Positions 10,826-37,339 of a stretch of DNA of 64,000 bases are shown here, piece after piece. The translations under genes were made by a program, and so were the position numbers. The DNA lies in the sequence record PZ091942.1; one strand, 5' to 3'. Every line of letters begins with the position of its first letter. Position 1 is the first letter of the stretch. Under the pieces are notes generated by a model, which did not search any database, was not told the origin of the DNA, and saw only the letters and a program-made list of their open reading frames with translations. The DNA comes from a phage.

Positions 10826-10834
10826 GGTGTTATC

Positions 10835-12558: not shown

Positions 12559-12635
12559 CACAATGGGCGCTCTGATAAAGGGCGCATTTAAAGGTTAATT
12601 AGATGAAAGGGTTTACCCTTCAGGTGGATTAGAAA

Positions 12636-14669: not shown

Positions 14670-14680
14670 GAGGTGAAGTT

Positions 14681-14914
14681 ATGGAAGTTCGTAAATTGAT
14701 GTTGGATAACGTTGTAACCACTCGACGTATCCCAATGACAAGCACAGGATGTGACAACCTTCGAGCTATTCAGAAATGGATGCAAGAGGGTATTGGGGGA
14801 CTGGTTAACTCTCCAGTTGAAATTCCTTTCCCAACCGTTATCAACAACGTGTTGGCTGACTATGTGAAATTGAAGGGGATTAAAGTTGAGCCTCATGTCA
14901 AGCAAGGGAGCTAA
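14681..14914 (+). CDS. hypothetical protein
   Basis: ATG with AAGAGG RBS; 77 aa. Confidence 0.45.
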   Translation: MEVRKLMLDNVVTTRRIPMTSTGCDNLRAIQKWMQEGIGGLVNSPVEIPFPTVINNVLADYVKLKGIKVEPHVKQGS

Positions 14915-15116
14915 GCCTCACCTGACAATGCTGGAGTATCAACAACTCCGACTTCAACAACTGGTAACGGAGCAGCGAAAGCTGTATCCGTTTGCTTTTA
15001 ACCTAATTGATTCACCAAGCGATGACCAAGAAGACGAGATGTTCGCCAAGTATTGGGAAATCGAAGTTAAAATTCAATCCTGTCGTAACGAAATTCTTAA
15101 ACTAAAAGGTATCTAA
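14886..15116 (+). CDS. hypothetical protein (start uncertain)
   Basis: Track start is TTG; in-frame ATGs at 14895 and 14928; no clear RBS. Confidence 0.35.
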   Translation: MSLMSSKGAKPHLTMLEYQQLRLQQLVTEQRKLYPFAFNLIDSPSDDQEDEMFAKYWEIEVKIQSCRNEILKLKGI

Positions 15117-15118
15117 AA

Positions 15119-16366
15119 ATGACTACTCGTATCCGTGTTCTTCCGTATGGCCCTTCTGATTCTGTTAACGCTCTGGTAACTGCCATTAATGATACTATCC
15201 GTGATGAACGTATCAACGCTAACGTAATGGGTCTTCTTTCAGAGAACAGCCGCTGGCGTTCTCGTGAAGGTGATGTGGTTGTGAACTACGGGAACCGTCG
15301 CTATCCTGAATCATTCTTTGGTTCTGCAACTGTTCTGAACAGCACAGCATCTCTGCATATGGCAGCGAACAAGCGTCGTGCTTTTAGCGTGATGGACCAA
15401 GCAGGTGTTAAAACAGTTGAATATACAGATGTTCAATCAACTGCTCAAGAGTGGTCAAACTCTGGCAATATTGTGTATGAGCGTCATGAACTGACTGGTC
15501 ACTCTGGTTCAGGCATTGTTGTTGTAGAGCCTCGTGATTCGGTTGGTCAAGCTGAACTGTACACCAAAGGTATCCTAGGCCCACGTCGTGAATGGCGTGT
15601 CCATGTGTTCAAAGGTGCTATCACCTATGTTCAGAAAAAGATTCGTCGTAACGGTTATCGTGAAGACCCTAACTATCGTGAAGATGTTCGTAACCATCAC
15701 ACTGGTTGGGTTTACTCAAGTTCCTTCACAGACGTTCCGAACGACACCTCTCTGATCAACGCAGTGAAAGCTGTTGAATCAATGGGTCTGGATTTCGGTG
15801 CAGTTGATATCATCACCAAAGGTCAAGAAGCATGGGTACTGGAAGTTAATACAGCACCGGGCCTAACTGGCACAACTCTGGATATCTACCGTCATAATAT
15901 CCTTGAGTTTGTTAAAGCTCAAAACCCTCTTTATACTCCTCAGTATAAAGTAGTTTACCAGACTCCTGTTGAAGCTCCAATCGAAGACGGAGACGGTGAG
16001 TTGGTTGCTGACAGTGAAAGTGCTGACGATGAAAACTTTGCACTGGAAGGCCAAGTAGCACAACCGGTTGATTCAGTTGATGTGGTTCCTGAAGAAATGC
16101 AACTGGAAGGTCAGATGAATACTCAAACTATTCGTAATGCACCTACTGGTTATGTGTTGTCTCGTGGTTATTGGATTGCCAACATCCGTCATGTTCATAA
16201 CAACCTGCAACCAAATGCAATGGCTGCCAATGTCATTCTGTTCTGTGATGGTCGTAACTTCTACCGCTCTGGTTGGAACGTTCCGGTCAATCCAGTCCAG
16301 ATTCATAACCCTCGCAAGTTAGAATCTGTCAATGTTGAAGGTAGTGAAGTAGCAGTAACTCTGTAA
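15119..16366 (+). CDS. ATP-grasp ligase (RimK-like)
   Basis: GHSGSGIVVVE and GAVDIIT..EAWVLEVNTAPGL match ATP-grasp nucleotide-binding motifs. Confidence 0.65.
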   Translation: MTTRIRVLPYGPSDSVNALVTAINDTIRDERINANVMGLLSENSRWRSREGDVVVNYGNRRYPESFFGSATVLNSTASLHMAANKRRAFSVMDQAGVKTVEYTDVQSTAQEWSNSGNIVYERHELTGHSGSGIVVVEPRDSVGQAELYTKGILGPRREWRVHVFKGAITYVQKKIRRNGYREDPNYREDVRNHHTGWVYSSSFTDVPNDTSLINAVKAVESMGLDFGAVDIITKGQEAWVLEVNTAPGLTGTTLDIYRHNILEFVKAQNPLYTPQYKVVYQTPVEAPIEDGDGELVADSESADDENFALEGQVAQPVDSVDVVPEEMQLEGQMNTQTIRNAPTGYVLSRGYWIANIRHVHNNLQPNAMAANVILFCDGRNFYRSGWNVPVNPVQIHNPRKLESVNVEGSEVAVTL

Positions 16367-16392
16367 TTAAATTAAACAAAAAGGAATTTGTA

Positions 16393-16635
16393 ATGTTGTC
16401 TATCGAAGATTTGATCAGCCGTGGAATGACCGAAGAAAAAGAGCCTCTGATTGTAGGCTCTCGTAAAGCTATTAACCAACTCTGTGAAGAGTTTGGCATC
16501 ACAAACAAGAGAATGATTGGTAATCAGTTCTCTGCAATCATCACCTTCCTCAAACGAGGTGATAAATATTCAATGGAATGTGTTGAGCGTATCATCGCAA
16601 TTGCACAAGAAGATAAGGGAGTAACAACTCTGTGA
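16393..16635 (+). CDS. hypothetical protein
   Basis: 80-aa ORF with ATG after AAAAGGAA. Confidence 0.45.
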   Translation: MLSIEDLISRGMTEEKEPLIVGSRKAINQLCEEFGITNKRMIGNQFSAIITFLKRGDKYSMECVERIIAIAQEDKGVTTL

Positions 16636-16817
16636 ATAAATATACAATCATGTTTCGTACAGTATCAGCAGAAGGGAATATTCAATCTCTGGACATTCAA
16701 GCAGACCGCTTTGAATCACTTGGAACAAATGTTAATTTCTTCCGAGGTGCAGAGCTAGTAGGTATGTTCCAATCTGATGTATTGACTGGTGTGATCAAAC
16801 ACTTCGAAGTAGAATAA
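16632..16817 (+). CDS. hypothetical protein
   Basis: 61-aa ORF coupled to upstream gene; followed by TAGCC..GGGCTA-type hairpin at about 16825-16848. Confidence 0.4.
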   Translation: MNKYTIMFRTVSAEGNIQSLDIQADRFESLGTNVNFFRGAELVGMFQSDVLTGVIKHFEVE

Positions 16818-16874
16818 TTTGCTTTAGCCTCTTCGAAAGAGGGGGCTAGTTCGAATTTAACTGGAGGTTGTAAA

Positions 16875-17291
16875 ATGGTTGATAATAAACTGGATATGTT
16901 TAAAAGTCGTATCTTAGATGTAGAGTATTCCAAAAACCTCTTTGAGAAACATAAGAAAGAGGCAAAGGAAGAATTAGAAAGTCTTCTGAAAGATGAAGAG
17001 ATTCCACTCTTTAATCGCTGGTGCCTGTTTATGGAGCACAGCTCCCTTTTCCCTGTGGCTTCTAGCTCTATCAGCAGAGCTGTTAACTATGCAGTAGACC
17101 GTTATTATGACTTGGAGAGATATCGAACCTACACCCTCTCTGATATTTTTGAAGAGTATTGGTTCAAGGAAAAAGAATTGTCGAACAGTGATCTTGTGGA
17201 AGCTGTTAAGGAGAGTTTTGAACTAATCTCTGAAAAAGATGTTCGATCAATCATCTTCTCCGGATATTCTGGTTTCCTATACGATTGGTAG
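16875..17291 (+). CDS. hypothetical protein
   Basis: ATG with GGAGG RBS; 138 aa. Confidence 0.5.
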   Translation: MVDNKLDMFKSRILDVEYSKNLFEKHKKEAKEELESLLKDEEIPLFNRWCLFMEHSSLFPVASSSISRAVNYAVDRYYDLERYRTYTLSDIFEEYWFKEKELSNSDLVEAVKESFELISEKDVRSIIFSGYSGFLYDW

Positions 17292-17297
17292 ACAGTC

Positions 17298-17495
17298 ATG
17301 AAAAAGATTTTACTCCTCCTCTCCTTATTCAGCGTATCAGCAATCGCCGCTGATGAATGCATCTCTAAAGATTCAGGGAGAGGTCAAATCGTAACTCAAT
17401 GTGGCAGCCATGTAACGGTTGTCGATTCTATAACTCAAACAATTCTCGTGTGTAACGGGACTTCTTGTACAAAAGAAATTCTAAACAAAAGGTAA
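17298..17495 (+). CDS. small secreted Cys-rich protein
   Basis: Signal-peptide-like MKKILLLLSLFSVSAIA then six Cys in about 45 residues. Confidence 0.45.
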   Translation: MKKILLLLSLFSVSAIAADECISKDSGRGQIVTQCGSHVTVVDSITQTILVCNGTSCTKEILNKR

Positions 17496-17499
17496 TGTA

Positions 17500-17931
17500 A
17501 TGTCTGATAAAGTATTAGTTGCAACGTATGGTTCTCTTCGTAAAGGTCAACACAACCACGCTATCAATGCTCGTGCCGGTGGTGTGTCTATTGGTGAAGG
17601 GTGGACAGTAAACAACTGTAACCTGTATCAGTATTGCACAGCATACTTCCCAAGTGTATCTCTGGTGCATGACAGCAATGGCAAGCCTGTTCGTGTAGAA
17701 GTCTTTGAAACAACCCAAGCTGGTCTGGAAGGTCCGTATGACGGTCTGGAAGGTTATCGTGGTAAAGACAATCCGTACACCTTCTATAATCGTACACTGA
17801 TTCCAGTAGTGCTGGATAATGGTGAAACTGTGGAAGCATGGATTTATCATATCGACGAAGAACAAGATGTTCTGGTTGAATCTGGTGACTGGACAGCGTA
17901 TCTGGCAGGTGAACAGGATGACAGTAACTGA
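17500..17931 (+). CDS. gamma-glutamyl cyclotransferase-like (GGCT/AIG2 family)
   Basis: N-terminal YGSLRKG motif and downstream VEVFE acidic residue typical of the GGCT fold; AAGG RBS. Confidence 0.6.
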   Translation: MSDKVLVATYGSLRKGQHNHAINARAGGVSIGEGWTVNNCNLYQYCTAYFPSVSLVHDSNGKPVRVEVFETTQAGLEGPYDGLEGYRGKDNPYTFYNRTLIPVVLDNGETVEAWIYHIDEEQDVLVESGDWTAYLAGEQDDSN

Positions 17932-20495: not shown

Positions 20496-21944
20496 ATGAT
20501 TAAGATTCCATTGTCTGAATTGAACCTTCAAGAAGGAGAAGCCCTCAGTGTAGGGCTTGACCTAATTCGTAATTTGATCAGAGATAACGTAGTCCCTGAT
20601 GGTATCTATCCTGTCATTGCAGGTGGTGCTATCCGTGATACGTTCTTCCAAAATCGAACTCCGAATGATGTTGATATCTTCCTAGTTCAAGGAGGGCTTC
20701 GTTGGAACACTCGTCAGGAAAACAGCCCTGCTAACGTAGGTAATGCTGCACTTTTCCTTGACAACTTCTTATCTTGGACAGAAAGTAAGGGGCTTCAGGT
20801 TACATCTCGACTAATTCAGCCTGTTAACGGGACAACCTATGCTGAAGCGCTTTTCACTTTCCAAGAGATTCTGGAAATTGAGATTGATCAAGTTAAAATC
20901 CAGATGATGATTAATCTACCTTTGGATATGGATACTTTAAGCCGTCGCTTCCCTATGATCTGTCAAGGGTTTATGACTCTTGGTAATCTGTATGTGTCAA
21001 ACGAAGGTTTGTTTGCAATGTCATACACTCGTGACATTCCTGTGGTATCTAGTCGTGAAATGAAGTACGTTCACAAGAAGTGGCCTGAAGCAACTGTTGC
21101 AGTTTATAGCAGTTCTACCGAATATATGCACCTTGCAATGGGAGCTTTCGGTGAGCCAGAAGTTCACCTGATTAGTGATTTAGTTGGACCTATGGCTGGT
21201 GTAAATTTATATCAGAATCAGCGTCGTCATTATACCCTGAAGATGATGGAAACTATATTAAACATTCCTCAGGAAAGGGGTCGTAGTTATCTGGACGAGG
21301 AAGTTAACCTACAGACAGAATGGTCTAGTGGATTAACCACTATCGGTGCTGAAGCAATCACACAACCTTGGACTCCGGGAACCAACAGACGTGACTCTTG
21401 GCAACAGGAAGTCCCAAGATTCGCAGCCCCTTCTACAATGGACCCTCGTAATACTTTTAATGGCAGTTTTGGTAGTGCACGTTCTTCTGGGACGGACACC
21501 CACAACCGTACATGGCATGTTCAAGGGGGAACTGCTCGTCCTATTCCTTCTCCGTCAATGGGTGATTTACAGCGTTCTCGTCGTTCATGGGAAACAGTAA
21601 GCTCAGTTGTTCAGGGTCTACGTGCTGGTGATATAGAACGTGTAGAAGTTGGTGATTTGCCAACCCCTATGGAAGATCGAGTGTCAACTATAGCGGCTCG
21701 TGAAGCTGCTCGTGTTGGTTTTCCATCTTTAGCTAATGATGCTAACAATACTCCTCGACCTGTCGGTCGTCGTAACGGTCTGGCTCACTCTGACACTGCA
21801 CTTGGTGCAGAACTTCGAGCTGCTGCTCGTGAACTATCTGGTGAGCTTCATAACAACTTAGCAGGTGTTACACTATCTCGTGAAACAGCTCGCAACATGA
21901 TTAACAATTTGGCATCATCTGTACAAGGAAATAGAAACTCATGA
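20496..21944 (+). CDS. nucleotidyltransferase (Pol-beta superfamily, CCA-adding/poly(A) polymerase-like head motif)
   Basis: VIAGGAIRDTFFQNRTPNDVDIFLV matches GGxVRD...DxD head-domain motif; C-terminal 200 aa low-complexity. Confidence 0.45.
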   Translation: MIKIPLSELNLQEGEALSVGLDLIRNLIRDNVVPDGIYPVIAGGAIRDTFFQNRTPNDVDIFLVQGGLRWNTRQENSPANVGNAALFLDNFLSWTESKGLQVTSRLIQPVNGTTYAEALFTFQEILEIEIDQVKIQMMINLPLDMDTLSRRFPMICQGFMTLGNLYVSNEGLFAMSYTRDIPVVSSREMKYVHKKWPEATVAVYSSSTEYMHLAMGAFGEPEVHLISDLVGPMAGVNLYQNQRRHYTLKMMETILNIPQERGRSYLDEEVNLQTEWSSGLTTIGAEAITQPWTPGTNRRDSWQQEVPRFAAPSTMDPRNTFNGSFGSARSSGTDTHNRTWHVQGGTARPIPSPSMGDLQRSRRSWETVSSVVQGLRAGDIERVEVGDLPTPMEDRVSTIAAREAARVGFPSLANDANNTPRPVGRRNGLAHSDTALGAELRAAARELSGELHNNLAGVTLSRETARNMINNLASSVQGNRNS

Positions 21945-22474
21945 GTCTTTTAGGTTCTCAAGAATTACACAGCGTTATTGATAATGGCTTTTTAGATGCG
22001 GAGCATAAATATGTTAACGCTGCTAGCGTGGATATCCGTATTGGTGATACTATCCTTGTTGAAGAACAGGCTGACGGCATTGTTGACATTGATGCTAAAG
22101 AAAACCTCAAGTGGAAAGAAGTAAAAATCCCTGAAGATGGTATCGTTATCACTCCGGGACAGTTCTTCTTAGCTCACTCGATGGAAGAGTTTAACCTTCC
22201 AGATAATATCTCAAGCCTGTTTGTACTCCGCTCCTCAATGGCTCGTTGTGGTTTAAACCACCTCCATGCTGGTTGGGCTGATGCAGGGTTTAACAGCAGT
22301 AAACTAACCTTTGAATTTCATAACGTTACCCATAATCATAGCTTACGAGTTCGTGCTGGGATGCGTGTTGGTCAAATGGTTATGTTCGAACACTCTCACG
22401 CTGGTGATGACTCTTATGCAGTGAAGGGTCGATACAACGGCAGTAATGGTGTAGTTGCATCTAAGGGTGTATAA
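21941..22474 (+). CDS. dcd: dCTP deaminase
   Basis: ASVDIRIGD and LRSSMARCGLNHLHAGWADAGFNS..LTFEFHN match dCTP deaminase/dUTPase-fold signatures. Confidence 0.75.
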   Translation: MSLLGSQELHSVIDNGFLDAEHKYVNAASVDIRIGDTILVEEQADGIVDIDAKENLKWKEVKIPEDGIVITPGQFFLAHSMEEFNLPDNISSLFVLRSSMARCGLNHLHAGWADAGFNSSKLTFEFHNVTHNHSLRVRAGMRVGQMVMFEHSHAGDDSYAVKGRYNGSNGVVASKGV

Positions 22475-22479
22475 CCAAG

Positions 22480-22671
22480 ATGAAAGAGGAAAAAGCTACT
22501 TACTTAGCTGTTGGTTTTATAGTTGGGGCATTTGCTATGGGAGTATTTATATCTAACGTTGGTCCAGATTCTAGCGTTAAGATTGAGACGAGAAGAGCTG
22601 CTTGTGAAATAAATCTCCCTCGTAGTCAGGTCTGTGTAATGCAGTTTGTCCCTAAATCGGTTGACAGATAA
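22480..22671 (+). CDS. small membrane protein (1 TM)
   Basis: Hydrophobic YLAVGFIVGAFAMGVFISNV segment. Confidence 0.4.
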   Translation: MKEEKATYLAVGFIVGAFAMGVFISNVGPDSSVKIETRRAACEINLPRSQVCVMQFVPKSVDR

Positions 22672-22883
22672 TGGAGTTTGGAACAATGAAAAGACGTTGG
22701 GTAGTTCGTATTCACTGGAGTAGTGGTACAGAGTCAATGGGTATTAGGAATACCCGTCAAGAAGCTCGCGCTCATAAGAAGTTCTTGTTAAGTTGTGAAA
22801 GCACAATTAATAAGATCACTATCCACAAAGCTCAAGACTTTAAATCAGGTCGTTTCTATATCAGCGGAAAGGTACATTACTAA
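22671..22883 (+). CDS. hypothetical protein, tandem paralog a
   Basis: NTRQEAR..KK ... I.IHK ... SGRFYISGKVHY shared with next ORF. Confidence 0.45.
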   Translation: MEFGTMKRRWVVRIHWSSGTESMGIRNTRQEARAHKKFLLSCESTINKITIHKAQDFKSGRFYISGKVHY

Positions 22884-23098
22884 TGGATAAATTATGGGCA
22901 GTTCGTACTAAATGGGCTAACAAAGCTCTTGGTGGTGATTGTATTCAATTATTCAACACAAGACAAGAGGCTCGTCTTGCTAAGAAAACTATAAAAGCTA
23001 CAAAAGCTTTAGGAATCGCTGAAAAGGTGGAGATTCATCGTTGGATTGAAAATATCCATAACAGTGCTGGATTCATATCCAGCAAGGTTTATTACTAG
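22883..23098 (+). CDS. hypothetical protein, tandem paralog b
   Basis: NTRQEARLAKK ... AGFISSKVYY; ATGA-coupled to paralog a. Confidence 0.45.
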   Translation: MDKLWAVRTKWANKALGGDCIQLFNTRQEARLAKKTIKATKALGIAEKVEIHRWIENIHNSAGFISSKVYY

Positions 23099-23122
23099 TT
23101 GGTAGTAGATATGATAACTCTC

Positions 23123-23131
23123 AAATGTATA
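23123..23131 (+). promoter_or_regulatory. AAATGTATA promoter-like motif
   Basis: Near-copy of TAATGTATA motif, 37 nt upstream of ATG 23169. Confidence 0.3.
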
Positions 23132-23168
23132 TACAGTATAAGAATATTGTATGAAACAGGAGAGAGTT

Positions 23169-23498
23169 ATGTTAGATTTGAGTAAAGTGGCCCCGCCATC
23201 TGAAGAGATTAGCAAAGCTAAAGTTATGCAGCAGTTCTACCATCGGGATATGCTTGGTCGTTATATCAAGAATCGTGATGTTGTTGCATGGTCTATTGGA
23301 AATCAAGGTTATCTTCTCAAAGTGTTGCAAGTTACTGGCTCAACAGCCAAGCGTGTTAAGGTGTATGACCCTGAAATGGGGCGTTCTAAGTCTGTAGACC
23401 CACAGAACTGCATCGTTATTACCCAGCAAGTAATGGATAATATTGAACGCAATGTAGCGAACTCAACTAACTTAGAGGGAGAATCTCCAAATGCATAA
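23169..23498 (+). CDS. hypothetical protein
   Basis: ATG with AGGAG RBS (track start 23151 lacks RBS). Confidence 0.5.
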   Translation: MLDLSKVAPPSEEISKAKVMQQFYHRDMLGRYIKNRDVVAWSIGNQGYLLKVLQVTGSTAKRVKVYDPEMGRSKSVDPQNCIVITQQVMDNIERNVANSTNLEGESPNA

Positions 23499-24057
23499 TA
23501 ATGTCTTCGACTTACCAGAACTGACACGAGTGGGTTCTAGCAACCCATTCTCTACAACTGACTCTTCTATCTCTCGTCTAGAGGGAATGAATAAACTGAT
23601 CAGTGGTAACAGTCTAGAGCACATCCTATGCGGTGTGCAGGCTAACCTTGAGCTTCTACACATCAAAGCAAAGAATTATCACTGGAACGTCTCTGGAGCT
23701 GGTTTCCAAGGTGTTCATGGTATGTTCGATGAATTAGAAGACTATGCTCGTGAAACTGGTGATCGGGTAGCAGAGCGAATGCGTTATCACTGTATTAAAG
23801 TGGATGCAACAGCTAGTAGCTATCTTGGTTGTGCTTGGTTCCGAGAAGGTAACGCTGATCTCGACATGGACGGTATGCTTTCCGACATGTGCATGACTCT
23901 TATGTGTATGATTGAGAAGATGGATGAGTTTGATTCAGACTTGTGCACCTATCCAGTAGACCAGAGTATGCTTCAAGAAATTAATGAAGGTCTTGGCAAG
24001 TTCTGTTACTTCGTCAAGAGCAACATGTCCCACTCTAGTGGCGATGTGTCTTACTAA
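23491..24057 (+). CDS. Dps-like ferritin-family protein (putative)
   Basis: LCGVQANLELLHIKAKNYHWNVSGAGFQGVHGMFDELEDYARETGDRVAERM matches the Dps signature. Confidence 0.5.
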   Translation: MHNNVFDLPELTRVGSSNPFSTTDSSISRLEGMNKLISGNSLEHILCGVQANLELLHIKAKNYHWNVSGAGFQGVHGMFDELEDYARETGDRVAERMRYHCIKVDATASSYLGCAWFREGNADLDMDGMLSDMCMTLMCMIEKMDEFDSDLCTYPVDQSMLQEINEGLGKFCYFVKSNMSHSSGDVSY

Positions 24058-24078
24058 TCAAACCTCCGCCCTGTCTCT

Positions 24079-24300
24079 TTGTTTAAGAGGTGGGGCGAAC
24101 TTCTTTATAAGGATATGAATATGTTTTCAGCAATCGTATGGTCTGTGTGGGCAATTTTTGTTGGTGGTATCGTTTATCTGGCTCAGAAGCAGATGCTTAA
24201 AGAGAATCCAAATGATGCTAAACCTATTAAACATGGTAGCATTGCTCTGGTAGTTTTCTCTGTTGTCATTCCTTTCCTTCTCCACCTGTTGACTGCATAA
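24079..24300 (+). CDS. small two-TM membrane protein, tandem paralog 1
   Basis: IVWSVWAIFVGGIVYLA ... IALVVFSVVIPFLLHLL; likely start at internal ATG (MNMFSAIVW). Confidence 0.45.
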   Translation: MFKRWGELLYKDMNMFSAIVWSVWAIFVGGIVYLAQKQMLKENPNDAKPIKHGSIALVVFSVVIPFLLHLLTA

Positions 24301-24309
24301 GGGTTTGAT

Positions 24310-24495
24310 ATGATTTCACTGATTGTGTGGGCCGTGTGGTCATTAATAGTTGGTACTGTTATATATAAAGCTCGAAATTTAGCAATTAAAGAAAACCCAG
24401 CAGAAGAGGATGTTAAAGCTATCAAGCTGGGTAGTGTTGTTCTGGTACATTTTGCTATAACACTACCTCTTGTTATTATTCTTTGTATGCTATAA
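24310..24495 (+). CDS. small two-TM membrane protein, tandem paralog 2
   Basis: IVWAVWSLIVGTVIY ... KENP ... VVLVHFAITLPLVIIL parallels previous ORF. Confidence 0.45.
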   Translation: MISLIVWAVWSLIVGTVIYKARNLAIKENPAEEDVKAIKLGSVVLVHFAITLPLVIILCML

Positions 24496-24507
24496 GGAAT
24501 CCAAAGA

Positions 24508-24684
24508 GTGAAACTAAACCTACCTGAAGAATTACAAGCACATGCCATTATCGTTAGTGGCTGTGTGATGGGTCTTGGTCAAACAAAGAAGATTGCTCAC
24601 GACTTAGCAAAAGGTCAGTATAAATCTTTTATTGTTGTTCCTGCTACCCAGCGTCATATCAACCTGTTTATTAACAAGGAATAG
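24508..24684 (+). CDS. small hypothetical protein (58 aa, not in ORF track)
   Basis: GTG after AAGGAA; third-codon positions A/T-biased like confirmed genes. Confidence 0.3.
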   Translation: MKLNLPEELQAHAIIVSGCVMGLGQTKKIAHDLAKGQYKSFIVVPATQRHINLFINKE

Positions 24685-24685
24685 A

Positions 24686-24964
24686 ATGAGTAAAGTAATT
24701 AAGTTTTATAGTAATTCATGTGCTCCATGTGCAGCTATGGCTCCTGTGTTTAAGAAGGTTGTAGCTGATTACAACGTAGAGGTTGAAGAAGTAAATATCT
24801 CTGAAGGTGATGGTCGAGAGCGAGCCATTGAATACGGTGTTCGCAGTATCCCAGCCTTTGTTGTCCCTGACCGTAATAGTGGTGCACATTATAGTTTATC
24901 AGGTATGCAGACCGAAGCAAACCTGAAAGCATTTTTGGATACAGCTCTGAATGGTAATCGATGA
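24686..24964 (+). CDS. thioredoxin/glutaredoxin-like protein
   Basis: ATG with AAGGAA RBS (track start 24632 rejected); CAPC active-site-like motif and RSIPAF cis-Pro region. Confidence 0.55.
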   Translation: MSKVIKFYSNSCAPCAAMAPVFKKVVADYNVEVEEVNISEGDGRERAIEYGVRSIPAFVVPDRNSGAHYSLSGMQTEANLKAFLDTALNGNR

Positions 24965-25421
24965 TTTAGAGTATATCCCCGAAACTGGAGAGTTCTTCCG
25001 AAATGGTAAGAAGTTAGGAGGAACTCGAAGTAAGTACATAACCCTACGGTTTAAAGGGAAGGTACACAAAGCTCATAAAGTGGCATGGTTCTTTTATTAT
25101 GGAGAATGGCCTTCTTCTCAGATAGATCATATCGACAGAAACAAGAAGAACAACTCAATACAGAACTTAAGACTGGTAGACACTTCGACAAACTGCCACA
25201 ACCAGTTCGGGGCTAGAGTATCAAACAAGGAAACAGGGCTTCAAGGTGTTAAGGTTGTCAAATATAGATCAGGGACTATTAGATATAGAGCTGTTATCTG
25301 TATTGATAAAGTAGACATACATCTAGGTATGTATGGCACTGCCGAAGAAGCCCATCAAGTTTACATGAATCGAAAAAAGGAACTTTTAATTGAACGAACA
25401 ACTACAAGCAACACTGATTGA
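24951..25421 (+). CDS. HNH homing endonuclease (HNH_3/AP2-type)
   Basis: IDHIDRNKKNNSIQNLRLVDTSTNCHN HNH motif. Confidence 0.7.
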   Translation: MVIDDLEYIPETGEFFRNGKKLGGTRSKYITLRFKGKVHKAHKVAWFFYYGEWPSSQIDHIDRNKKNNSIQNLRLVDTSTNCHNQFGARVSNKETGLQGVKVVKYRSGTIRYRAVICIDKVDIHLGMYGTAEEAHQVYMNRKKELLIERTTTSNTD

Positions 25422-26043
25422 AGCAATGGGTAGTGACAAATCTGTAGTCAACGCAGCTAGGGTATCTTTCGGTGTTGTTCGAGAAGGTGACTTAAATGAG
25501 AGAGACACAAAACTTATCAATTTCCTTGCACGGGAAAAACACTGCACGCCTTTCCGTCATCCGACAATTAGCTTCCGATGCAAAGCGCCAATCGCAATTG
25601 CGAGACAGTTGGGCAAGCATCAAGTTGGATTCTCGTGGAACGAAATGTCCCGGAGGTATAAAGATGGAGCAGTTGAATGCTTTGTCCCTGAAGAGATTTT
25701 TGAAAGACCTTCAGACCTCCATGCAGGTTCGGGGAGCCTCCTTATCGGAGCCAATGGTGAAGCAGCAAAAGTAGCCTTTGAACGTGCTTATACTTTAGCT
25801 GTTCAGACATACGAAGGGTTGTTATCAGAAGGTGTTGCACCAGAACAAGCTCGATTCGTATTGCCTCAGGGCATGATCACTGAGTGGGTCTGGACAGGTT
25901 CTTTATTCGGTTGGTCAGAGTTATGTCGTCAGCGACTGTCAGACCACGCTCAGTATGAAGTACGAGTGTTTGCATCAACTATTGATGAAGAGCTTCGTAA
26001 AATCTACCCAATCTCTTGGGATGCATTACGTGAAGCCCACTAA
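25390..26043 (+). CDS. thyX: ThyX-like flavin-dependent thymidylate synthase family protein with non-canonical RHR motif
   Basis: AARVSF, HCTPFRH, KAPIAIARQ, SWNEMSRRY, SDHAQYE align with ThyX; RHR position reads KHQ; start TTG 25390 or ATG 25426. Confidence 0.7.
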   Translation: MNEQLQATLIEAMGSDKSVVNAARVSFGVVREGDLNERDTKLINFLAREKHCTPFRHPTISFRCKAPIAIARQLGKHQVGFSWNEMSRRYKDGAVECFVPEEIFERPSDLHAGSGSLLIGANGEAAKVAFERAYTLAVQTYEGLLSEGVAPEQARFVLPQGMITEWVWTGSLFGWSELCRQRLSDHAQYEVRVFASTIDEELRKIYPISWDALREAH

Positions 26044-26215
26044 AGCATGTAGCTTCTGTCGAAAGCAGAAGCTTCTTATCAATTTCAAGCTGAACGAGGA
26101 AACAGGTTTGGGTCATGCTTTTTGTCATGATTGCAGGCACTACCTCGAACAGAAGCAATACATAAACTGGTTGCATTACTGCAACCCTAACATCTATAAG
26201 CACAAGGTTATCTAA
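26021..26215 (+). CDS. small Cys/His-rich protein
   Basis: In-frame ATG of track ORF 25955-26215; CSFC ... CHDC ... HYC. Confidence 0.35.
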   Translation: MHYVKPTKACSFCRKQKLLINFKLNEETGLGHAFCHDCRHYLEQKQYINWLHYCNPNIYKHKVI

Positions 26216-26695
26216 ATGAAAGCTATTTTTGAAGGAAGGGAGTATGATGTTCCTGATTGGGTTAAATACATAGCTCGTGACTATGATAATCTGGTTTGGG
26301 CATATGGAGACGTAAGACCTGTGTTTAATGAAAACACTGGTAGTTGGTCTAACATGTCAAAATTACCAGGATTTATTCGGGCACTTGGCTCTTCTAGTCG
26401 TCCTGTAGGTTTCGCTGCTGACTCACTTGTTGAGGTTGGTGTTGAAAAGGAAATAGACAAGCCAGAAACGATTTGGGTTTTATCTTCAAGCACACCAATC
26501 AAGGGAAGTCGTGGGATTTCCTTCTATGTTGAGCCTGTCGCTTACTTCAAAAACAAGCCGACCATTAATGCTCTTATGTTAAAGAATATCCCTTATTCGC
26601 AAGTTACCACCCTGTTAGACAATGGGACAGTGCTTGTTGAGAATAACGGGACAAATCAAATCTTTTATGATTTAGAAGAAAGGGTTTTAGAATGA
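26216..26695 (+). CDS. hypothetical protein
   Basis: 159-aa ORF, ATG abutting upstream stop. Confidence 0.5.
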   Translation: MKAIFEGREYDVPDWVKYIARDYDNLVWAYGDVRPVFNENTGSWSNMSKLPGFIRALGSSSRPVGFAADSLVEVGVEKEIDKPETIWVLSSSTPIKGSRGISFYVEPVAYFKNKPTINALMLKNIPYSQVTTLLDNGTVLVENNGTNQIFYDLEERVLE

Positions 26696-26904
26696 AAGGT
26701 TTAGGATTAGGAAAGCACCGTTTTACTTTCCGCATCTCCGACAGGAACCCATACCCAACGAAGATTGAACCTTACGAGATCATCTCTGAGGTGTTTATCT
26801 GGCCTTGGCAGAGTATCTATGATGTTGCTCTTAAGTCCAAGAAGAAGCTGATACCTGTTGGTATTTGGGCTGATGTTGATTTAATTAAAATCGAAAAGGT
26901 TTAA
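26692..26904 (+). CDS. hypothetical protein
   Basis: ATGA-coupled 70-aa ORF. Confidence 0.4.
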   Translation: MKGLGLGKHRFTFRISDRNPYPTKIEPYEIISEVFIWPWQSIYDVALKSKKKLIPVGIWADVDLIKIEKV

Positions 26905-26905
26905 A

Positions 26906-27226
26906 ATGATTAATGATAATACATTTAGGACTGGTAACGGAAACGAGATTAGTCCTGCTGAAGTGATTAAACGACACAGAACACAGATGCTTATCCACTC
27001 CTATTTGTATTATTGGTTGGATGACCCAATCTGGTCTGACGATAAGTGGCAACAAGTGGCTGATGACTTAACCACCTTGCAGGAGATGTATCCCGAACCT
27101 ATTGGATTCTTTGATTCAGAGTTTGAAGGATGGAACGGTTCTACTGGTATGCATCTCCCACATGACGAGCGTATTGCTTGTATGGCTACTGAAGTATATC
27201 GTTTACATAAGGACAAATCAATCTGA
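26906..27226 (+). CDS. hypothetical protein
   Basis: 106-aa ORF; HSYLYYWLDDPIWSDDKW region of unknown significance. Confidence 0.45.
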   Translation: MINDNTFRTGNGNEISPAEVIKRHRTQMLIHSYLYYWLDDPIWSDDKWQQVADDLTTLQEMYPEPIGFFDSEFEGWNGSTGMHLPHDERIACMATEVYRLHKDKSI

Positions 27227-27404
27227 AATGTTTTAAATGTGAATCAACTCTTCTCCATTTGAACTCGAAAGTAATACGGGAGCTTGCCAAAGGCTCCCCG
27301 ACTAAAGGGAAGAATAAGAAGTTTGTCGAAATTAAGGTTATAGGTATACATTGTTCAGAGTGTAAATCCTGTAGCTTCTTATATGAAGAACACGGAGGTA
27401 GGAA

Positions 27405-28145
27405 ATGAGTCGTAGAGAATCTCGGAAAGCATCACGGAGAGAATTACGTCGTGAAGCTCTCGTCACCAAGAAAGGAAAGCGGGAATTTGAAGAAGTAGTT
27501 CTTGCTAAGCCGGTAGTACCTCAGAACCAATTCCAGAGTGAGCTACTCAATGCTATCAAGACTAAACAAGTGGTGTTCACAGACGCTCCTGCGGGCTGTG
27601 GTAAGACGTTCGTCATCACCTCTACTGTCATTGATGCACTGAAGAGTGGTAAGATTCAAAAGATTATCATTAGCCGACCCTCTGTTGGCATGGGTAATTC
27701 TCTTGGATTACTTCCGGGCGGGCTTCGTGATAAGTTCGAACCATACCTAATGCCTATTGTTGATGTGATTACTCAGCGATACGGTAAAGGTTTCTATGAA
27801 TGTCAGCTTGGTAATGGGAACATTGAGTTTGTACCTCTGGAATATCTCCGTGGTCGATCTTTCAATGATGCCATTGTTATTGTGGATGAGTTCCAGAATA
27901 CAACCAAAGATGAGGCATTCTCTATCATGACCCGCTTGGGTGAAACATCCCAGCTGTTCTGTATGGGTGACACAAACCAGCACGATATGAAAGGTCGAGA
28001 GAGTGGTCTTACTTGGGCTACCGAGTTTATTGATGAGCACGACCTGTATGAGTTCGCTGATATTGTTGATGGCGACTCAGGTGATATTGTTCGTTCTGGT
28101 TTCTGTAAAGCAATTGTTAAAGCTATGGAAAAGGATGGTAATTAA
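27405..28145 (+). CDS. phoH: PhoH-like ATPase
   Basis: GGAGG RBS; P-loop APAGCGKTF and ISRPSVGMGNSLGLLPGGLRDKFEPYLMP. Confidence 0.8.
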   Translation: MSRRESRKASRRELRREALVTKKGKREFEEVVLAKPVVPQNQFQSELLNAIKTKQVVFTDAPAGCGKTFVITSTVIDALKSGKIQKIIISRPSVGMGNSLGLLPGGLRDKFEPYLMPIVDVITQRYGKGFYECQLGNGNIEFVPLEYLRGRSFNDAIVIVDEFQNTTKDEAFSIMTRLGETSQLFCMGDTNQHDMKGRESGLTWATEFIDEHDLYEFADIVDGDSGDIVRSGFCKAIVKAMEKDGN

Positions 28146-28331
28146 ATGCAAGTTGCCCTAGTTATCCGAGACTGTGGTGATGGTACTTCTACCATTGACT
28201 TCTACAAAAACATTGAACAAGCATGTTTTGAGTGTGAAGAATTTAATGAAGATACCTGTGTAAATGATGGTGAACCAACTATTATTGATGTTCCTGACAC
28301 TTTTGTACCACCTACAGGGTGGTGTGACTAG
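28146..28331 (+). CDS. small acidic hypothetical protein
   Basis: 61-aa ORF directly after PhoH stop. Confidence 0.4.
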   Translation: MQVALVIRDCGDGTSTIDFYKNIEQACFECEEFNEDTCVNDGEPTIIDVPDTFVPPTGWCD

Positions 28332-28402
28332 GGCTGGCAACTAAAGCCACCCTCTCATAATGTATACTCCTTAGTGTACACTGATATGTTAAGGAGTTGT
28401 AA

Positions 28403-28717
28403 ATGACTGATAAGGCTAAAAGAGATTATGCACAAGAACGAAGAACTGCAATCGCAAGGGGTGAGACCGGCGTTGGTAGCAAGAGCGGAGATGCTCAGCG
28501 CCACCGTGCACGTCGCATCGTTGAAAAGCGCGATGGAAAAGCTGCTGTCCGAGGTAAAGATGTTGGACACAAACGATCAATCAAGTCGGGAGGTTCTAAT
28601 GCGTCAAGTAACTTACGTGTTGAATCAATCTCTGGAAATCGCTCGAACGGCGGCAAAAGTGGAGATCGTGCTGGAAAATCAGCAGGCGGTCGCAAAGGAG
28701 CTTTAAGCTCAAGTTAA
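28403..28717 (+). CDS. basic Gly/Ser/Lys/Arg-rich protein
   Basis: AAGGAG RBS; A/T-biased third positions (unlike overlapping frame 28428-28706); terminator immediately downstream. Confidence 0.45.
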   Translation: MTDKAKRDYAQERRTAIARGETGVGSKSGDAQRHRARRIVEKRDGKAAVRGKDVGHKRSIKSGGSNASSNLRVESISGNRSNGGKSGDRAGKSAGGRKGALSSS

Positions 28718-28722
28718 TATAA

Positions 28723-28756
28723 GGCTACCCATTTCGGGTGGCCTTTTCTTTTATAT
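28723..28756 (+). terminator. rho-independent terminator
   Basis: GGCTACCC-ATTTC-GGGTGGCC hairpin then TTTTCTTTT. Confidence 0.6.
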
Positions 28757-28773
28757 AACCTAAGGTAATAAAT

Positions 28774-29025
28774 ATGTCTAAAGTAACTTATATCACTGTA
28801 ACTGATTTCTTTCCTTTTCTGGATGTAACTGAAAGCTACACCTTCCCCGTGAGCAATGTTACAAGCTCTGTTGAGATGATTCAATTTAACCCAACAACAG
28901 CTCGTACTAACGTGGCTCTTCGTGGTCCTGATGGCAAGTTCATCTCCTTCCGTGATAAGAGTGTTCCTAAGCGTATTGCTAAGTCTATTGAAAACTTGAA
29001 ACCTTTCCCTAACTTTGGTGCATAA
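28774..29025 (+). CDS. hypothetical protein, tandem paralog a
   Basis: TARTNVALRGPDGKFISFRD ... NLKPFP shared with next ORF; leader AAGGTAATAAATATG. Confidence 0.5.
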   Translation: MSKVTYITVTDFFPFLDVTESYTFPVSNVTSSVEMIQFNPTTARTNVALRGPDGKFISFRDKSVPKRIAKSIENLKPFPNFGA

Positions 29026-36092: not shown

Positions 36093-36743
36093 ATGAAGAA
36101 AAAGACAACACCTACACGCTATCGTATTCATGGCATTCCTATTAAGTATTATCCAACCTTCGATGAATTCTATCGAGAGAACTGGAAAGTTGTGCATAAG
36201 TATTTTATGTATGACATTAAAGATTATCACGAAGCAGAGGATGTTGCTCAGGAAGTGTTACTAAACGCTTGGCGTTTTGTGTTTGCAAAGCAAGAAGAAC
36301 TTCTGCTCACTGATGAAAAAGATATTGAGCACATGACTTATCGTGTCAAGAATATCATCTGGTCGATTCGTTCTAATCGCCAGACAGTTGGAGACCGACG
36401 TATCTACTCTATTCCAGAGGCTGATATGTTTAGACCTCCTGAGATGAATTCATGGGAAAGCCCTTTAGAGATTGCAATGGATAAGCATGACTCTACTGGA
36501 GACCCATTCTTGGAATCTAGAATCTTTTTCTTCTTCCAAGACTTAAGTGATATTATGGATACCAAGAAAATGGCAAGCATGTTCTCTATGCTCTTCCTTG
36601 GAATACCTCATGATCACATCCAGCAGGAGCTGGGAATTTCACACGGAACTTTCTATCGCCGTTATGCAGAGAATCGTGATCTATATGAAGCGGTAGTAGA
36701 GAAGCACTTTGATAAAGAAGATCTTCAAGGGATGATTCAATAA
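36093..36743 (+). CDS. sigma-70/ECF-family sigma factor (putative phage sigma factor)
   Basis: TTAAGGA RBS; region-2-like [13 protein letters not shown] and C-terminal [23 protein letters not shown]. Confidence 0.55.
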
Positions 36744-37339
36744 TGAGTAAACCATTAGTAGTAATTCTGAATGGACCACCGGGTTGTGGTAAAGATACAA
36801 TCGCTAATTCTTGGTTAGAGAAGACACTCGGTAACGATGAGTTTAGACCGCATGTAAAGGCTTTTAAGGAGCCTATGCATCGAGTGGCTGCTGCTGCATT
36901 AGGTCTCCCTCTTCATGAGTTCATGGAGCTGTACAACGACCGTGAGTGGAAAGAACATAACCGTCCTGAATGGGGCGGTAAGTCAGTTCGAGACTTGATG
37001 ATTGTAACTAGTGAGAGCTATCTGAAGCCTATGTTTGGTGAGACCTGCATGGGTAAACTTGCTGTTAGTAGTATTCAACAACGCATCCCATCACAGAATG
37101 ATGTTATCGTCTTCTCTGATGGTGGGTTTAAAGCAGAAGTTGAAGAACTAGAGAAGCATTTCCATGTTCGAGTAGTTCAGATTCTCCGAGATGGCTGCTC
37201 CTTTGAAGGAGATTCCCGTTCTTATATTGAAGGAACAAACCTACCAACCTACCTCCTATTTAATGACCGTTCTGTAGAAGAGGCAGTGGAGGATTTGGAG
37301 TGGATTATTGAAGGGACACGGAGAGGTCTCTATGTCTGA
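36743..37339 (+). CDS. P-loop nucleotide kinase (deoxynucleoside monophosphate kinase-like)
   Basis: Walker A GPPGCGKDT at N-terminus; size typical of dNMP kinases. Confidence 0.55.
   Translation: MSKPLVVILNGPPGCGKDTIANSWLEKTLGNDEFRPHVKAFKEPMHRVAAAALGLPLHEFMELYNDREWKEHNRPEWGGKSVRDLMIVTSESYLKPMFGETCMGKLAVSSIQQRIPSQNDVIVFSDGGFKAEVEELEKHFHVRVVQILRDGCSFEGDSRSYIEGTNLPTYLLFNDRSVEEAVEDLEWIIEGTRRGLYV

Follow-up and report, generated by a model that had tools for sequence, protein, structure and literature searches.

Genes at the thyX locus

The window, i.e. the whole 64,000-nt stretch of phage DNA that was analysed (record PZ091942.1), carries the thyX gene of a phiEco32-like coliphage, preceded by a thioredoxin gene (trx) and by an HNH gene that runs into the thyX start:

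24686..24964, plus strand: thioredoxin gene (Pfam Thioredoxin 2.6e-12, PHROG 22), with a probable ATG start within ORF 24632-24964
24951..25421, plus strand: HNH gene (156 aa; HNH_3 domain and C-terminal AP2-like segment), predicted free-standing homing endonuclease
25377..25382, plus strand: AAGGAA Shine-Dalgarno-like site, 7 nt 5′ of the thyX TTG and within the HNH gene
25390..25421, plus strand: dual-coding overlap of 32 nt, thyX codons 1-11 and the HNH C-terminus (…ERTTTSNTD and stop) in different frames
25390..26043, plus strand: thyX (217 aa, phage-type ThyX branch), TTG start, called from the ORF and family profiles

The ORF at 25390-26043 contains the ThyX-type motifs AARVSF, TPFRH, KAPIAIARQ, SWNEMSRRY and SDHAQYE. 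It matched the Pfam Thy1 profile PF02511 (E=2.4e-44; 151.9 bits, cut-off 24.8) over profile positions 1-190 of 191, the equivalog model TIGR02170 (131.8 bits, cut-off 87.9) and PHROG 85 (2.2e-62). Its best PDB matches, including 6j61 (E=2.5e-30) and Thermotoga maritima ThyX 1kq4 (E=3e-25), were all canonical RHR enzymes, both by sequence and by Foldseek. An AF2 monomer model (pLDDT 88.9, pTM 0.83) retrieved T. maritima ThyX in all of the top 50 Foldseek matches (TM 0.79-0.84, E about 4e-17). Pfam, TIGR02170, PDB and fold thus agree, far beyond chance, with the ThyX-family assignment of the first-pass annotation, and the ORF is a full-length family member. Orthologues lie at the same position in other Gordonclarkvirinae (ES17 gp061, Bas88_0052, Bas87_0055, ECBP2, IME267; 'thymidylate synthase' in GenBank), in the locus order trx … thyX … ligase-Ia … phoH. 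The query protein is 77-84% identical to the orthologues of the phage collection and 96% identical to a metagenomic protein, with the central helical segment (residues about 120-160) being mosaic and divergent across the group.

The gene starts with TTG directly downstream of a TAA stop at 25387-25389, and the Shine-Dalgarno/TTG junction is the same in phage ES17 by sequence comparison. In alignment register, the N-terminus falls 4 residues short of that of T. maritima ThyX, whose N-terminal hairpin has a first β-strand that the query lacks; a similarly short N-terminus occurs in the ThyX of cyanophage S-RIM44. The earlier remark that the protein begins short thus holds by these 4 residues only, and the N-terminus is native: the HNH-free thyX of Bas88 (ATG AAT GAA CAA…) encodes the same peptide MNEQLQATLIEAMG from its ATG, with three differences across this stretch, each synonymous in the thyX frame. 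This rules out truncation of ThyX by HNH insertion. The ES17 annotation starts thyX at an internal ATG (25426 here), giving a shorter product. We reject this start, as the 12 upstream codons are conserved, vary only synonymously and encode β-strand 1 of the model.

The HNH gene, described in the first-pass annotation as overlapping the thyX start, is indeed present with an HNH_3 domain (Pfam 1.6e-13; PHROG 99 3.8e-41), and its product is 98% identical in amino acids to ES17 gp062. The order trx-HNH-thyX recurs in ES17, TH38, YW01 and FH3; the gene is absent at this locus in Bas88, IME267 and ECBP2, and a different HNH gene (45% identity) occupies the same site in Bas87 and EK010. No Rfam intron match was found in 23000-28000, and an intron- or intein-borne origin was ruled out on this ground. 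These comparisons identify the gene as a predicted free-standing homing endonuclease of polymorphic presence among kuraviruses. It would have inserted between trx and thyX, changing the thyX start from the ATG of HNH-free Gordonclarkvirinae alleles to TTG and leaving the protein intact. Homing endonucleases of the free-standing HNH/GIY-YIG kind that sit beside phage nucleotide-metabolism genes include T4 mobE at nrdA/nrdB and I-TevI at td. The present gene resembles these in being a small endonuclease ORF wedged beside a conserved dNTP-synthesis gene, in its presence or absence among close relatives and in overlapping its neighbour.

K-H-Q replaces R-H-R, with dUMP and folate residues conserved

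Two stretches of the product were compared with the active site of T. maritima ThyX:

25615..25623, plus strand: K76-H77-Q78 (AAG CAT CAA), aligned with R78-H79-R80 of T. maritima ThyX
25648..25659, plus strand: S87-R88-R89-Y90 (TCC CGG AGG TAT), equivalent to T. maritima S88-G89-R90-Y91

HMMER placed the T. maritima sequence 'ARQWFRHRIA-SYNELSGRY' opposite 'ARQLGKHQVGFSWNEMSRRY' of the query, with a one-residue insertion in the latter, and MAFFT alignments gave the same pairing of K-H-Q with R-H-R. The ThyX signature R-H-R-(X)7-8-S thus reads K-H-Q-(X)8-S, the His and Ser being retained and the arginines replaced by Lys and Gln. The K-H-Q reported by the first-pass annotation is therefore real, and the agreement of three independent alignments rules out a mis-assigned motif. 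As to its function, the annotation had the motif contacting dUMP. Such contacts do exist, but the main role of RHR is to hold the FAD phosphates and ribityl chain and the flavin N1-C2=O (PMC6514825, PMC11940539, PMC3498832). R165 is likewise described as a FAD phosphate/ribityl ligand (PMC6514825), and R78 as the charge partner of the reduced flavin (PMC11940539).

The T. maritima enzyme (TM0449; PDB 1O26, 4GT9, 8REO) has the same fold (TM 0.80-0.84 across about 210 residues) and a similar length at about 31% identity, and shares with the query the residues for dUMP binding and methylene transfer. Specifically, the dUMP-binding/activating residues Q75, E86, S88, R90, Y91, R147 and R174 correspond to query Q73, E85, S87, R89, Y90, R155 and R182; these are invariant in 50 homologues and invariant or nearly so in sets of 120, 124 and 120 sequences. 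The folate/NADPH-site residues H53, which stacks on the folate, and E144 (query H51 and E152) are also invariant or nearly so. In T. maritima numbering, used for active-site positions below, the query keeps H53, R74, Q75, E86, S88, R90, Y91, E144, R147, R174 and H178. In contrast, it has 8 rather than 7 residues between the motif and the Ser, an extra Arg at position 89 (query R88; Gly in T. maritima) and Pro for R143, and R80 and R165, the FAD phosphate ligands of canonical enzymes, together with E58, are replaced by Gln, Phe and Arg, respectively. In PBCV-1 ThyX, the pocket for the dUMP phosphate can be filled by the side chain of residue 89 (PMC3498832).

With two of the three RHR residues replaced, a TTG start codon sitting inside the HNH gene and a shorter product preferred by the ES17 annotators, thyX could be read as a decaying or non-catalytic remnant that lost its motif and had its start disturbed by HNH insertion. 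We regard this as hardly credible: thyX is under purifying selection, dN/dS being 0.07-0.27 among kuravirus orthologues, and 50 homologues, the least similar 52% identical, share 58 invariant positions, every catalytic residue among them. Decay is equally at odds with the conserved N-terminal residues described above and with the good Shine-Dalgarno site ahead of the TTG.

K-H-Q is the signature of a phage ThyX branch

Among the 120 closest homologues, all 116 regex-matched sequences read KHQ, and by alignment K78 and Q80 were present in 120/120. A further set comprised the 124 nearest representatives of 50%-identity clusters (<300 aa). Here, position 78 was Lys in 101 and Arg in 22, and Arg80 was kept in only two (K-S-R, K-H-R). 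Position 80 varies within the branch (Q, K, T, H…). Arg89, giving S-R-R-Y, occurred in 236/244 variant but 0/120 canonical sequences, and R165 in 0/244 and 120/120, respectively. Taking R80, R89 and R165 together, the pattern (+,-,+) held for 120/120 canonical and (-,+,-) for 234/244 variant sequences. In a neighbour-joining tree, the 243 sequences without R80 (242 homologues plus the query) and two K-x-R sequences formed one clade, apart from 121 canonical ones. The branch signature is thus K78, non-Arg80, Arg89, Pro143 in place of K/R143, and non-Arg165. His53, E144, S30 and T/S55, which also line the flavin/folate site, are conserved. In the close clade of the query, E58 is additionally replaced by Arg, and the R…KQGS loop residues, retained by most of the branch, are missing.

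The branch comprises no fewer than 244 sequence clusters, and 434 representatives had scores better than 1e-30. The close clade, searched for with the patterns WNExSRRYK and WTGSL[YF]GW, which cover this clade only, was absent from 185,579 cellular species genomes except for one 526-bp contig, a likely contaminant. On sequence grounds, then, K-H-Q is what a large phage ThyX branch normally carries and no peculiarity of the query gene, and the K/R-H-x branch is apparently virus-only. All Gordonclarkvirinae orthologues carry K-H-Q and S-R-R-Y. The ThyX proteins of PBCV-1 (A674R), cyanophages and mycobacteriophages (PDB 2CFA, 4FZB) are alike in being virus-encoded for a boost of dTMP; unlike the query, they keep R-H-R and R165 and have Q, G or L at position 89, and the match of the query to 2cfa is distant (E=3.6e-9). 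We found neither a description of a K-H-Q ThyX nor a characterised phage ThyX of this type in the literature.

Since R80 and R165, which clamp the pyrophosphate/AMP part of FAD, as well as K/R143 near the folate/NADPH site, are all replaced, the phage-type branch might make dTMP while binding FMN or a loose FAD, or while using another reductant or one-carbon donor. The coordinated nature of these losses, accompanied in the close clade by the change at E58, would fit such altered cofactor use, as would position 80, which varies as though freed from constraint, and the published role of RHR and R165 as FAD phosphate/ribityl ligands (PMC6514825). Moreover, free formaldehyde can serve ThyX as a source of carbon in vitro (PMC8316439). 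However, the conserved His53, E144, S30 and T/S55 of the flavin/folate site oppose this idea, which we consider unlikely.

Genomic context and the question of a modified base

Further genes of nucleotide metabolism lie elsewhere in the window:

21941..22474, plus strand: dCTP deaminase (TIGR02274 107 bits, cut-off 92.8), context for dU nucleotide supply
36743..37339, plus strand: dNMP kinase (PHROG 139 1.5e-38), context for dTMP to dTDP

The best PDB matches of the dCTP deaminase were the Bacillus halodurans and Mycobacterium tuberculosis enzymes (4xjc, 2qxx), which we take to be bifunctional, dUMP-forming dCTP deaminases. The same genome also contains an uncharacterised amidoligase/ATP-grasp/GATase cluster and a 482-aa nucleotidyltransferase for which no Pfam or PDB match was found. 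TIGR02274 and PHROG 139 bear out the deaminase and kinase that the first-pass annotation had listed, and the amidoligase cluster it named is present as well. From these genes and the altered motif it had proposed a non-canonical pyrimidine pathway, possibly yielding a modified base; this proposal fares poorly against the clade-wide K-H-Q and Arg89, the retained dUMP and folate residues, purifying selection and the dNTP-gene context.

Taken further, this reading would have the variant ThyX make a non-canonical 5-substituted pyrimidine nucleotide, e.g. 5-hydroxymethyl-dUMP formed when the exocyclic methylene intermediate captures water, or act on dCMP, with the resulting DNA modification underlying restriction resistance. 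Gordonclarkvirinae reportedly resist restriction-modification with no known DNA modification, and the BASEL authors describe no known pathway (PMC11990801). Site avoidance was ruled out as the source of resistance, given that EcoRI, EcoRV and EcoKI sites occur in the window at about the expected frequency (13 observed vs 20 expected, 30 vs 20 and 6 vs 6, respectively). Together, unexplained resistance and sites that are not avoided keep a DNA modification among the candidate causes. Besides the altered signature motif, the amidoligase/ATP-grasp/GATase cluster and the nucleotidyltransferase would suit such a pathway. In addition, the ThyX family has one specificity-changed member, PolB (PDB 4P5A), presumably the UMP/dUMP C5-methylase of polyoxin biosynthesis, which illustrates that substrate specificity in the family can change. 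PolB comes from a Streptomyces secondary-metabolite cluster and matches the query more weakly than true thymidylate synthases do (E=2.4e-18 vs 2.5e-30).

Several observations argue against a modified base. R174, which reads and activates uracil N3/O4, and S88, R90 and Y91 are invariant, and the substrate should therefore be a uracil nucleotide. Known phage pyrimidine hydroxymethylases and hydroxylases all belong to the ThyA family and none to ThyX (PMC8989533, PMC13326640); a ThyA-family enzyme of this kind was not found among the window proteins scanned, the sole thymidylate-synthase-like gene being of the ThyX family, and only one 'thymidylate synthase' is annotated in a ~32-kb stretch of Bas88. 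None of the 25 window proteins scanned, in a stretch where several large ORFs carry no functional assignment, was a 5-hmdU DNA kinase, an aGPT-Pplase or a DNA glycosyltransferase, nor are a 5-hmdU kinase, an aGPT-Pplase or a glycosyltransferase annotated in the complete relative Bas88. Restriction profiling and sub-cloning served to map the phiEco32 termini, and the YF01 assembly came from Nanopore reads (PMC9965538). In addition, dTMP would still come from Escherichia coli ThyA. No DNA-composition data for kuraviruses were found in the literature.

The neighbours of variant thyX genes in other phages speak in the same direction. These encode RNR, thioredoxin or glutaredoxin, a nucleotide kinase, PhoH, a MazG-like protein, primase/helicase and DNA polymerase, i.e. 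ordinary dNTP-supply genes are found around variant thyX in several unrelated phage groups. In particular, K-H-Q thyX of Chaseviridae and of Pseudomonas, Vibrio and Rheinheimera phages lies beside RNR, thioredoxin and kinase genes with no adjoining modification genes. We thus consider a modified base improbable for the query enzyme. For the K-H-x/S-R-R-Y branch, the use of another flavin or donor, or formation of a 5-substituted dUMP other than dTMP, which could aid restriction resistance in Gordonclarkvirinae, appears quite doubtful.

Probable thymidylate synthesis by a rewired ThyX

As K-H-Q is normal for an apparently phage-only branch, ordinary dTMP synthesis is the likeliest reading, and the product of the query ORF, a member of the phage-type K/R-H-x branch, is probably a functional flavin-dependent thymidylate synthase that converts dUMP to dTMP. 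Like other ThyX enzymes, it would methylate dUMP using methylene-tetrahydrofolate, bound flavin and NADPH. With Lys76, a positive charge stabilising N1-C2=O of the reduced flavin may be preserved, and the arginine gained at position 89 may reach into the dUMP-phosphate pocket and replace R80. With both R80 and R165 gone, the flavin pyrophosphate would have to be held differently. Counting against this reading, three basic cofactor-site residues of canonical enzymes (R80, K/R143, R165) are missing, as are the R…KQGS loop residues in the close clade of the query. Because activity of M. tuberculosis ThyX depends on a number of residues, the conserved ThyX motif among them, according to a passage of PMC2386288 that cites Ulmer et al. 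2008, we infer rather than assert that Arg89 compensates for the loss of R80.

In the infected cell, the phage dCTP deaminase, possibly of the dUMP-forming type, would supply dUMP, from which ThyX would make dTMP and the phage dNMP kinase dTDP. The outcome would be more dTTP for the replication, in E. coli, of a genome with 57% A+T.

For the window, these results are mostly a correction: the gene probably encodes the dTMP synthase of the phage, and the HNH gene is predicted to be a common mobile element. The retention of a constrained thyX also argues against published speculation that these phages contain dU-DNA. At the level of the family, the 'invariant' RHR signature fails for a sizeable ThyX branch, and motif-based annotation rules would miss K/R-H-x enzymes. 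From the loss of R80 and R165 and the gain of R89, one would expect the nucleotide/flavin-phosphate site to be built differently. The point matters for antibacterial work, in which ThyX is a drug target and inhibitor design draws on its RHR contacts. The phage branch may also offer a simple, testable example of how the active site of a mechanistically unusual enzyme is rewired.

Identity of the thyX gene and its start

24951-25421 (+): HNH endonuclease gene (Pfam HNH_3, 1.6e-13; PHROG 99, 3.8e-41)
25390-26043 (+): thyX, a complete ThyX ORF with a TTG start
25615-25623 (+): K76-H77-Q78, aligned by HMMER with R78-H79-R80 of T. maritima ThyX

Profile and structural matches bear out the first-pass assignment of the protein encoded at 25390-26043 to the ThyX family. 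It matched Pfam Thy1 over profile positions 1-190 of 191 (E=2.4e-44), the NCBIfam equivalog TIGR02170 with 131.8 bits (cut-off 87.9) and PHROG 85 'thymidylate synthase' (2.2e-62), its best solved relatives being flavin-dependent thymidylate synthase 6j61 (2.5e-30) and T. maritima TM0449 (3e-25). When an AlphaFold2 model from 50 homologues (pLDDT 88.9, pTM 0.83) was compared with the PDB by Foldseek, the top 50 matches were all T. maritima ThyX chains (TM 0.79-0.84). Orthologues are already named thymidylate synthase in public records. By profile, fold and catalytic residues, the protein is predicted to work like ThyX.

By megablast, window positions 21000-29000 matched 99 phage records with 90-93% identity and a shared gene order. 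Almost all belong to phiEco32-group Escherichia phages (Gordonclarkvirinae/Kuravirus), such as TH34, Bas88, ECBP2, IME267 and ES17. The annotated order in Bas88 is amidoligase cluster, primase/helicase, DNA polymerase exonuclease subunit, nucleotidyltransferase, dCTP deaminase, small ORFs, Dps-like DNA-binding protein, thioredoxin, thymidylate synthase, ligase-Ia, PhoH, DNA polymerase, sigma factor, dNMP kinase and exonuclease.

The proposed overlap of an HNH endonuclease gene with the thyX start was confirmed, the HNH stop (TGA, 25419-25421) lying 32 nt into thyX. HNH-free Bas88 reads '…AAGG ATG AAT GAA CAA TTA CAA GCA ACA CTA ATC GAA GCA ATG GGT', and the window and ES17 '…TTTTAA TTG AAC GAA CAA CTA CAA GCA ACA CTG ATT GAA GCA ATG GGT', with TTG in place of the Bas88 ATG. 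Because the peptide MNEQLQATLIEAMG is identical in all three, with only synonymous differences in the thyX frame, AAGGAA (25377-25382) precedes the TTG, and the model begins its first beta-strand within residues 6-13, we conclude that TTG is the functional start and that the N-terminus is native. The internal ATG annotated as the start in ES17 is probably too short a choice, given the conserved upstream codons and this strand. An earlier description of the N-terminus as short holds in that the first strand of the N-terminal hairpin is missing, as it likewise is in the canonical ThyX of cyanophage S-RIM44, but the start lies only four residues after that of T. maritima.

The window has the thioredoxin-HNH-thyX arrangement in common with ES17, TH38, YW01 and FH3 (86.7% nucleotide identity in one piece), with 98% amino-acid identity for the HNH protein. 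At the HNH position, a 71-aa ORF is present in Bas88, IME267, ECBP2 and others, and an HNH of another type (45% identity) in Bas87 and EK010. An Rfam scan of 23000-28000 returned no group I or II intron and no other Rfam family. The HNH gene is most readily read as a free-standing homing endonuclease gene at a site of repeated insertion; homing-endonuclease insertions are described as the only synteny breaks in the adjoining, otherwise fully syntenic replication-gene locus (BASEL authors, PMC11990801). At the 3′ end, a 61-aa CxxC…CxxC ORF (26030-26215, +; PHROG 15951) overlaps thyX by 14 nt; in ES17 another small ORF, annotated 'anti-restriction nuclease', takes its place.

K-H-Q marks a branch of phage ThyX enzymes

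HMMER placed T. maritima 'ARQWFRHRIA-SYNELSGRY' opposite 'ARQLGKHQVGFSWNEMSRRY', with one additional residue between K-H-Q and the conserved Ser. Three MAFFT alignments gave the same register, so that the first-pass reading of the R-H-R counterpart as K-H-Q survives a check for mis-assignment. The role then ascribed to the motif, contacting dUMP, is part of the picture: direct dUMP contacts include R78 and R80 (PMC3498832), but R-H-R is described chiefly as binding the phosphates and ribityl chain of FAD (PMC6514825), its first Arg additionally facing flavin N1-C2=O and touching dUMP (PMC6514825; PMC11940539). As two of the three R-H-R residues of the classical signature R-H-R-(X)7-8-S differ, and the FAD-phosphate ligand R165 of canonical enzymes is absent, we file the protein in a variant branch of ThyX, not as a textbook member.

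K78 and Q80 (T. maritima numbering) occur in all of the best 120 homologues (96% to 51% identity) from a search of 5.8 billion proteins. For a broader sample, 124 proteins shorter than 300 aa were taken from the best 150 representatives among 1.84 billion 50%-identity clusters. Of these, 101 have K at position 78, 22 have R and one has T; position 80 holds Q in 67, K in 18, T in 16, H in 6 and other residues in the rest, with Arg in only two (K-S-R and K-H-R). R-H-R is present in 120/120 canonical enzymes, drawn from Thermotogae, cyanomyophages and Bxz1-like mycobacteriophages.

Active-site positions in canonical ThyX (n=120) and the variant branch (n=244)
R80 and R165: both in 120/120 canonical; R165 in 0 and R80 in 2 of the variant branch
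Position 89: Q, G or L, no Arg, in canonical; Arg in 236/244 of the variant branch, giving S-R-R-Y
Position 143: K or R in canonical; Pro in the variant branch
Position 58: invariant Glu in canonical; Arg in the close clade (nearest relatives) of the variant branch

Across the close homologues, the broader sample and the canonical enzymes alike, H53, Q75, E86, S88, R90, Y91, E144, R147 and R174 show little or no variation. A neighbour-joining tree was built from 366 sequences; it is a crude distance tree with canonical diversity unevenly sampled. In it, all 243 non-R80 sequences and the two K-x-R sequences formed a single clade apart from the 121 canonical ones. K-H-Q thus looks like the signature of a clade with coordinated residue changes, not a lesion. 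The branch is sizeable, as 434 of 7,601 ThyX-like cluster representatives scored better than 1e-30 against the query. Its named members are all phages: kuraviruses, Salmonella SeKF_80, Chaseviridae (Erwinia Mauresque), Yersinia PYps16N, Pseudomonas HHBS10_2, Vibrio VPp1, Rheinheimera Barba (K-H-K) and Bacillus Taylor (K-Y-V). Two close-clade peptide patterns, scanned against one genome per species (185,579 bacterial/archaeal), hit only a 526-bp Herbiconiux contig. PDB matches by sequence and Foldseek included no solved structure from the branch, and a literature search found no description of the K-H-Q variant, the 'ThyX motif' papers including none on phage variants.

Same-branch representatives of 350-640 aa (P0122, P0129, P0205, P0232, P0264) match in 2-3 stretches, which suggests inteins or other insertions within thyX of other phages. 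The central helical segment is mosaic (25690-25870, residues about 100-160; 5-12 identities per 20 residues against relatives vs 16-20 elsewhere). The flexible active-site loop, W-R…K-Q-G-S in the majority of the branch and in many of the canonical enzymes, reads I-F…H-A-G-S in the close clade.

A putatively rewired phosphate and cofactor site

The query retains R174, which polarises and activates dUMP, the methylene-transfer residues S88, R90 and Y91, dUMP phosphate-binding R147 (with R74 in the variant branch) and folate-stacking H53. Lys76 could give the anionic reduced flavin the positive charge that otherwise comes from R78 (PMC11940539), and the Arg that almost all of the branch has at position 89 may replace R80 in phosphate binding; in PBCV-1 ThyX, the Gln-89 side chain is able to occupy the dUMP-phosphate pocket (PMC3498832). 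Position 80 varies within the branch, as expected if the role of R80 had moved elsewhere. With R165 and K/R143 gone, the flavin pyrophosphate and NADPH/folate tail would have to be held in another way, a change of cofactor preference being a less likely consequence. With dN/dS of 0.07-0.27 among four kuravirus alleles, thyX is under purifying selection, most amino-acid change falling in the surface helical segment (residues about 120-160).

Nucleotide supply versus base modification

21941-22474 (+): dCTP deaminase, above its equivalog cut-off

The best PDB matches of the deaminase, 4xjc and 2qxx/4a6a/2qlp, rank ahead of the monofunctional E. coli Dcd (1xs1); we take them to be the dUMP-forming, bifunctional dCTP deaminase-dUTPases of B. 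halodurans and M. tuberculosis. The phage enzyme may likewise form dUMP directly, handing it to ThyX. Together with the dNMP kinase (PHROG 139) and thioredoxin, it resembles an ordinary dTTP-supply set for a 57% A+T genome. Elsewhere, variant thyX neighbours ribonucleotide reductase, thioredoxin or glutaredoxin, nucleotide kinase, PhoH, MazG-like pyrophosphatase, primase/helicase and DNA polymerase; no base-modification genes lie beside it in the other phages examined.

Nearby, a 106-aa protein (26906-27226, +) holds only the NAD+-binding Ia domain of NAD-dependent DNA ligase (Pfam Nlig-Ia, 8e-34), and relatives annotate its homologue 'DNA ligase' though the catalytic domains are absent. A 188-aa Dps/ferritin-like protein (23491-24057, +; Pfam Ferritin 2.4e-7; PHROG 3636 'DNA binding protein') is named 'integrase' or 'DNA-binding protein' in related records.

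The first-pass annotation took the altered motif to signal a non-canonical pyrimidine or modified base instead of dTMP synthesis. In its favour, relatives are reported resistant to the EcoRI, EcoRV and EcoKI restriction-modification systems (PMC11990801), whose sites are not avoided in 1-64000 (observed vs expected: EcoRI 13 vs 20, EcoRV 30 vs 20, EcoKI 6 vs 6). However, the intact uracil-reading residues argue against dCMP as the substrate, a thyX under constraint speaks against dU-DNA, and this enzyme type recurs in phage groups unrelated to one another, in ordinary nucleotide-metabolism settings. The pyrimidine hydroxymethylases and hydroxylases known from phages are all ThyA homologues (PMC8989533, PMC13326640), and no known hypermodification kinase, pyrophosphorylase or glycosyltransferase was found in the Bas88 annotation or the 25 window proteins scanned. 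Moreover, phiEco32 DNA has been mapped with restriction enzymes and sub-cloned, and the YF01 assembly was made from Nanopore reads (PMC9965538). We consider a modified-base role very improbable: the motif change is real, and the meaning first given to it most likely wrong.

Other sites in 1-64000 deviate strongly in count: CCWGG 5 vs 77 expected, GATC 121 vs 240, GGATCC 0 vs 11, CTGCAG 0 vs 11 and CAGCAG 97 vs 22. A 482-aa ORF (20496-21944, +) between the DNA polymerase exonuclease subunit and dCTP deaminase genes is named 'nucleotidyltransferase' only via PHROG 12715 (6.8e-173), matched no Pfam family or PDB sequence, and was flagged by the BASEL authors as a possible DNA-modification gene (PMC11990801). 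Downstream of ORFs 7847-9067 and 9076-10026, the phiEco32-type amidoligase cluster (9974-17931, +) encodes COOH-NH2 ligase type 2, Amidoligase_2, a class-II glutamine amidotransferase (667 aa), a RimK-like ATP-grasp protein and a gamma-glutamyl cyclotransferase; in Vibrio phage VPp1, genes for an amidoligase and an ATP-grasp protein lie within a few kb of that phage's K-H-Q thyX.

The interest of this gene lies in an unrecognised, apparently virus-only branch of ThyX with a putatively rewired phosphate/cofactor site, which also bears on the restriction resistance of these phages.
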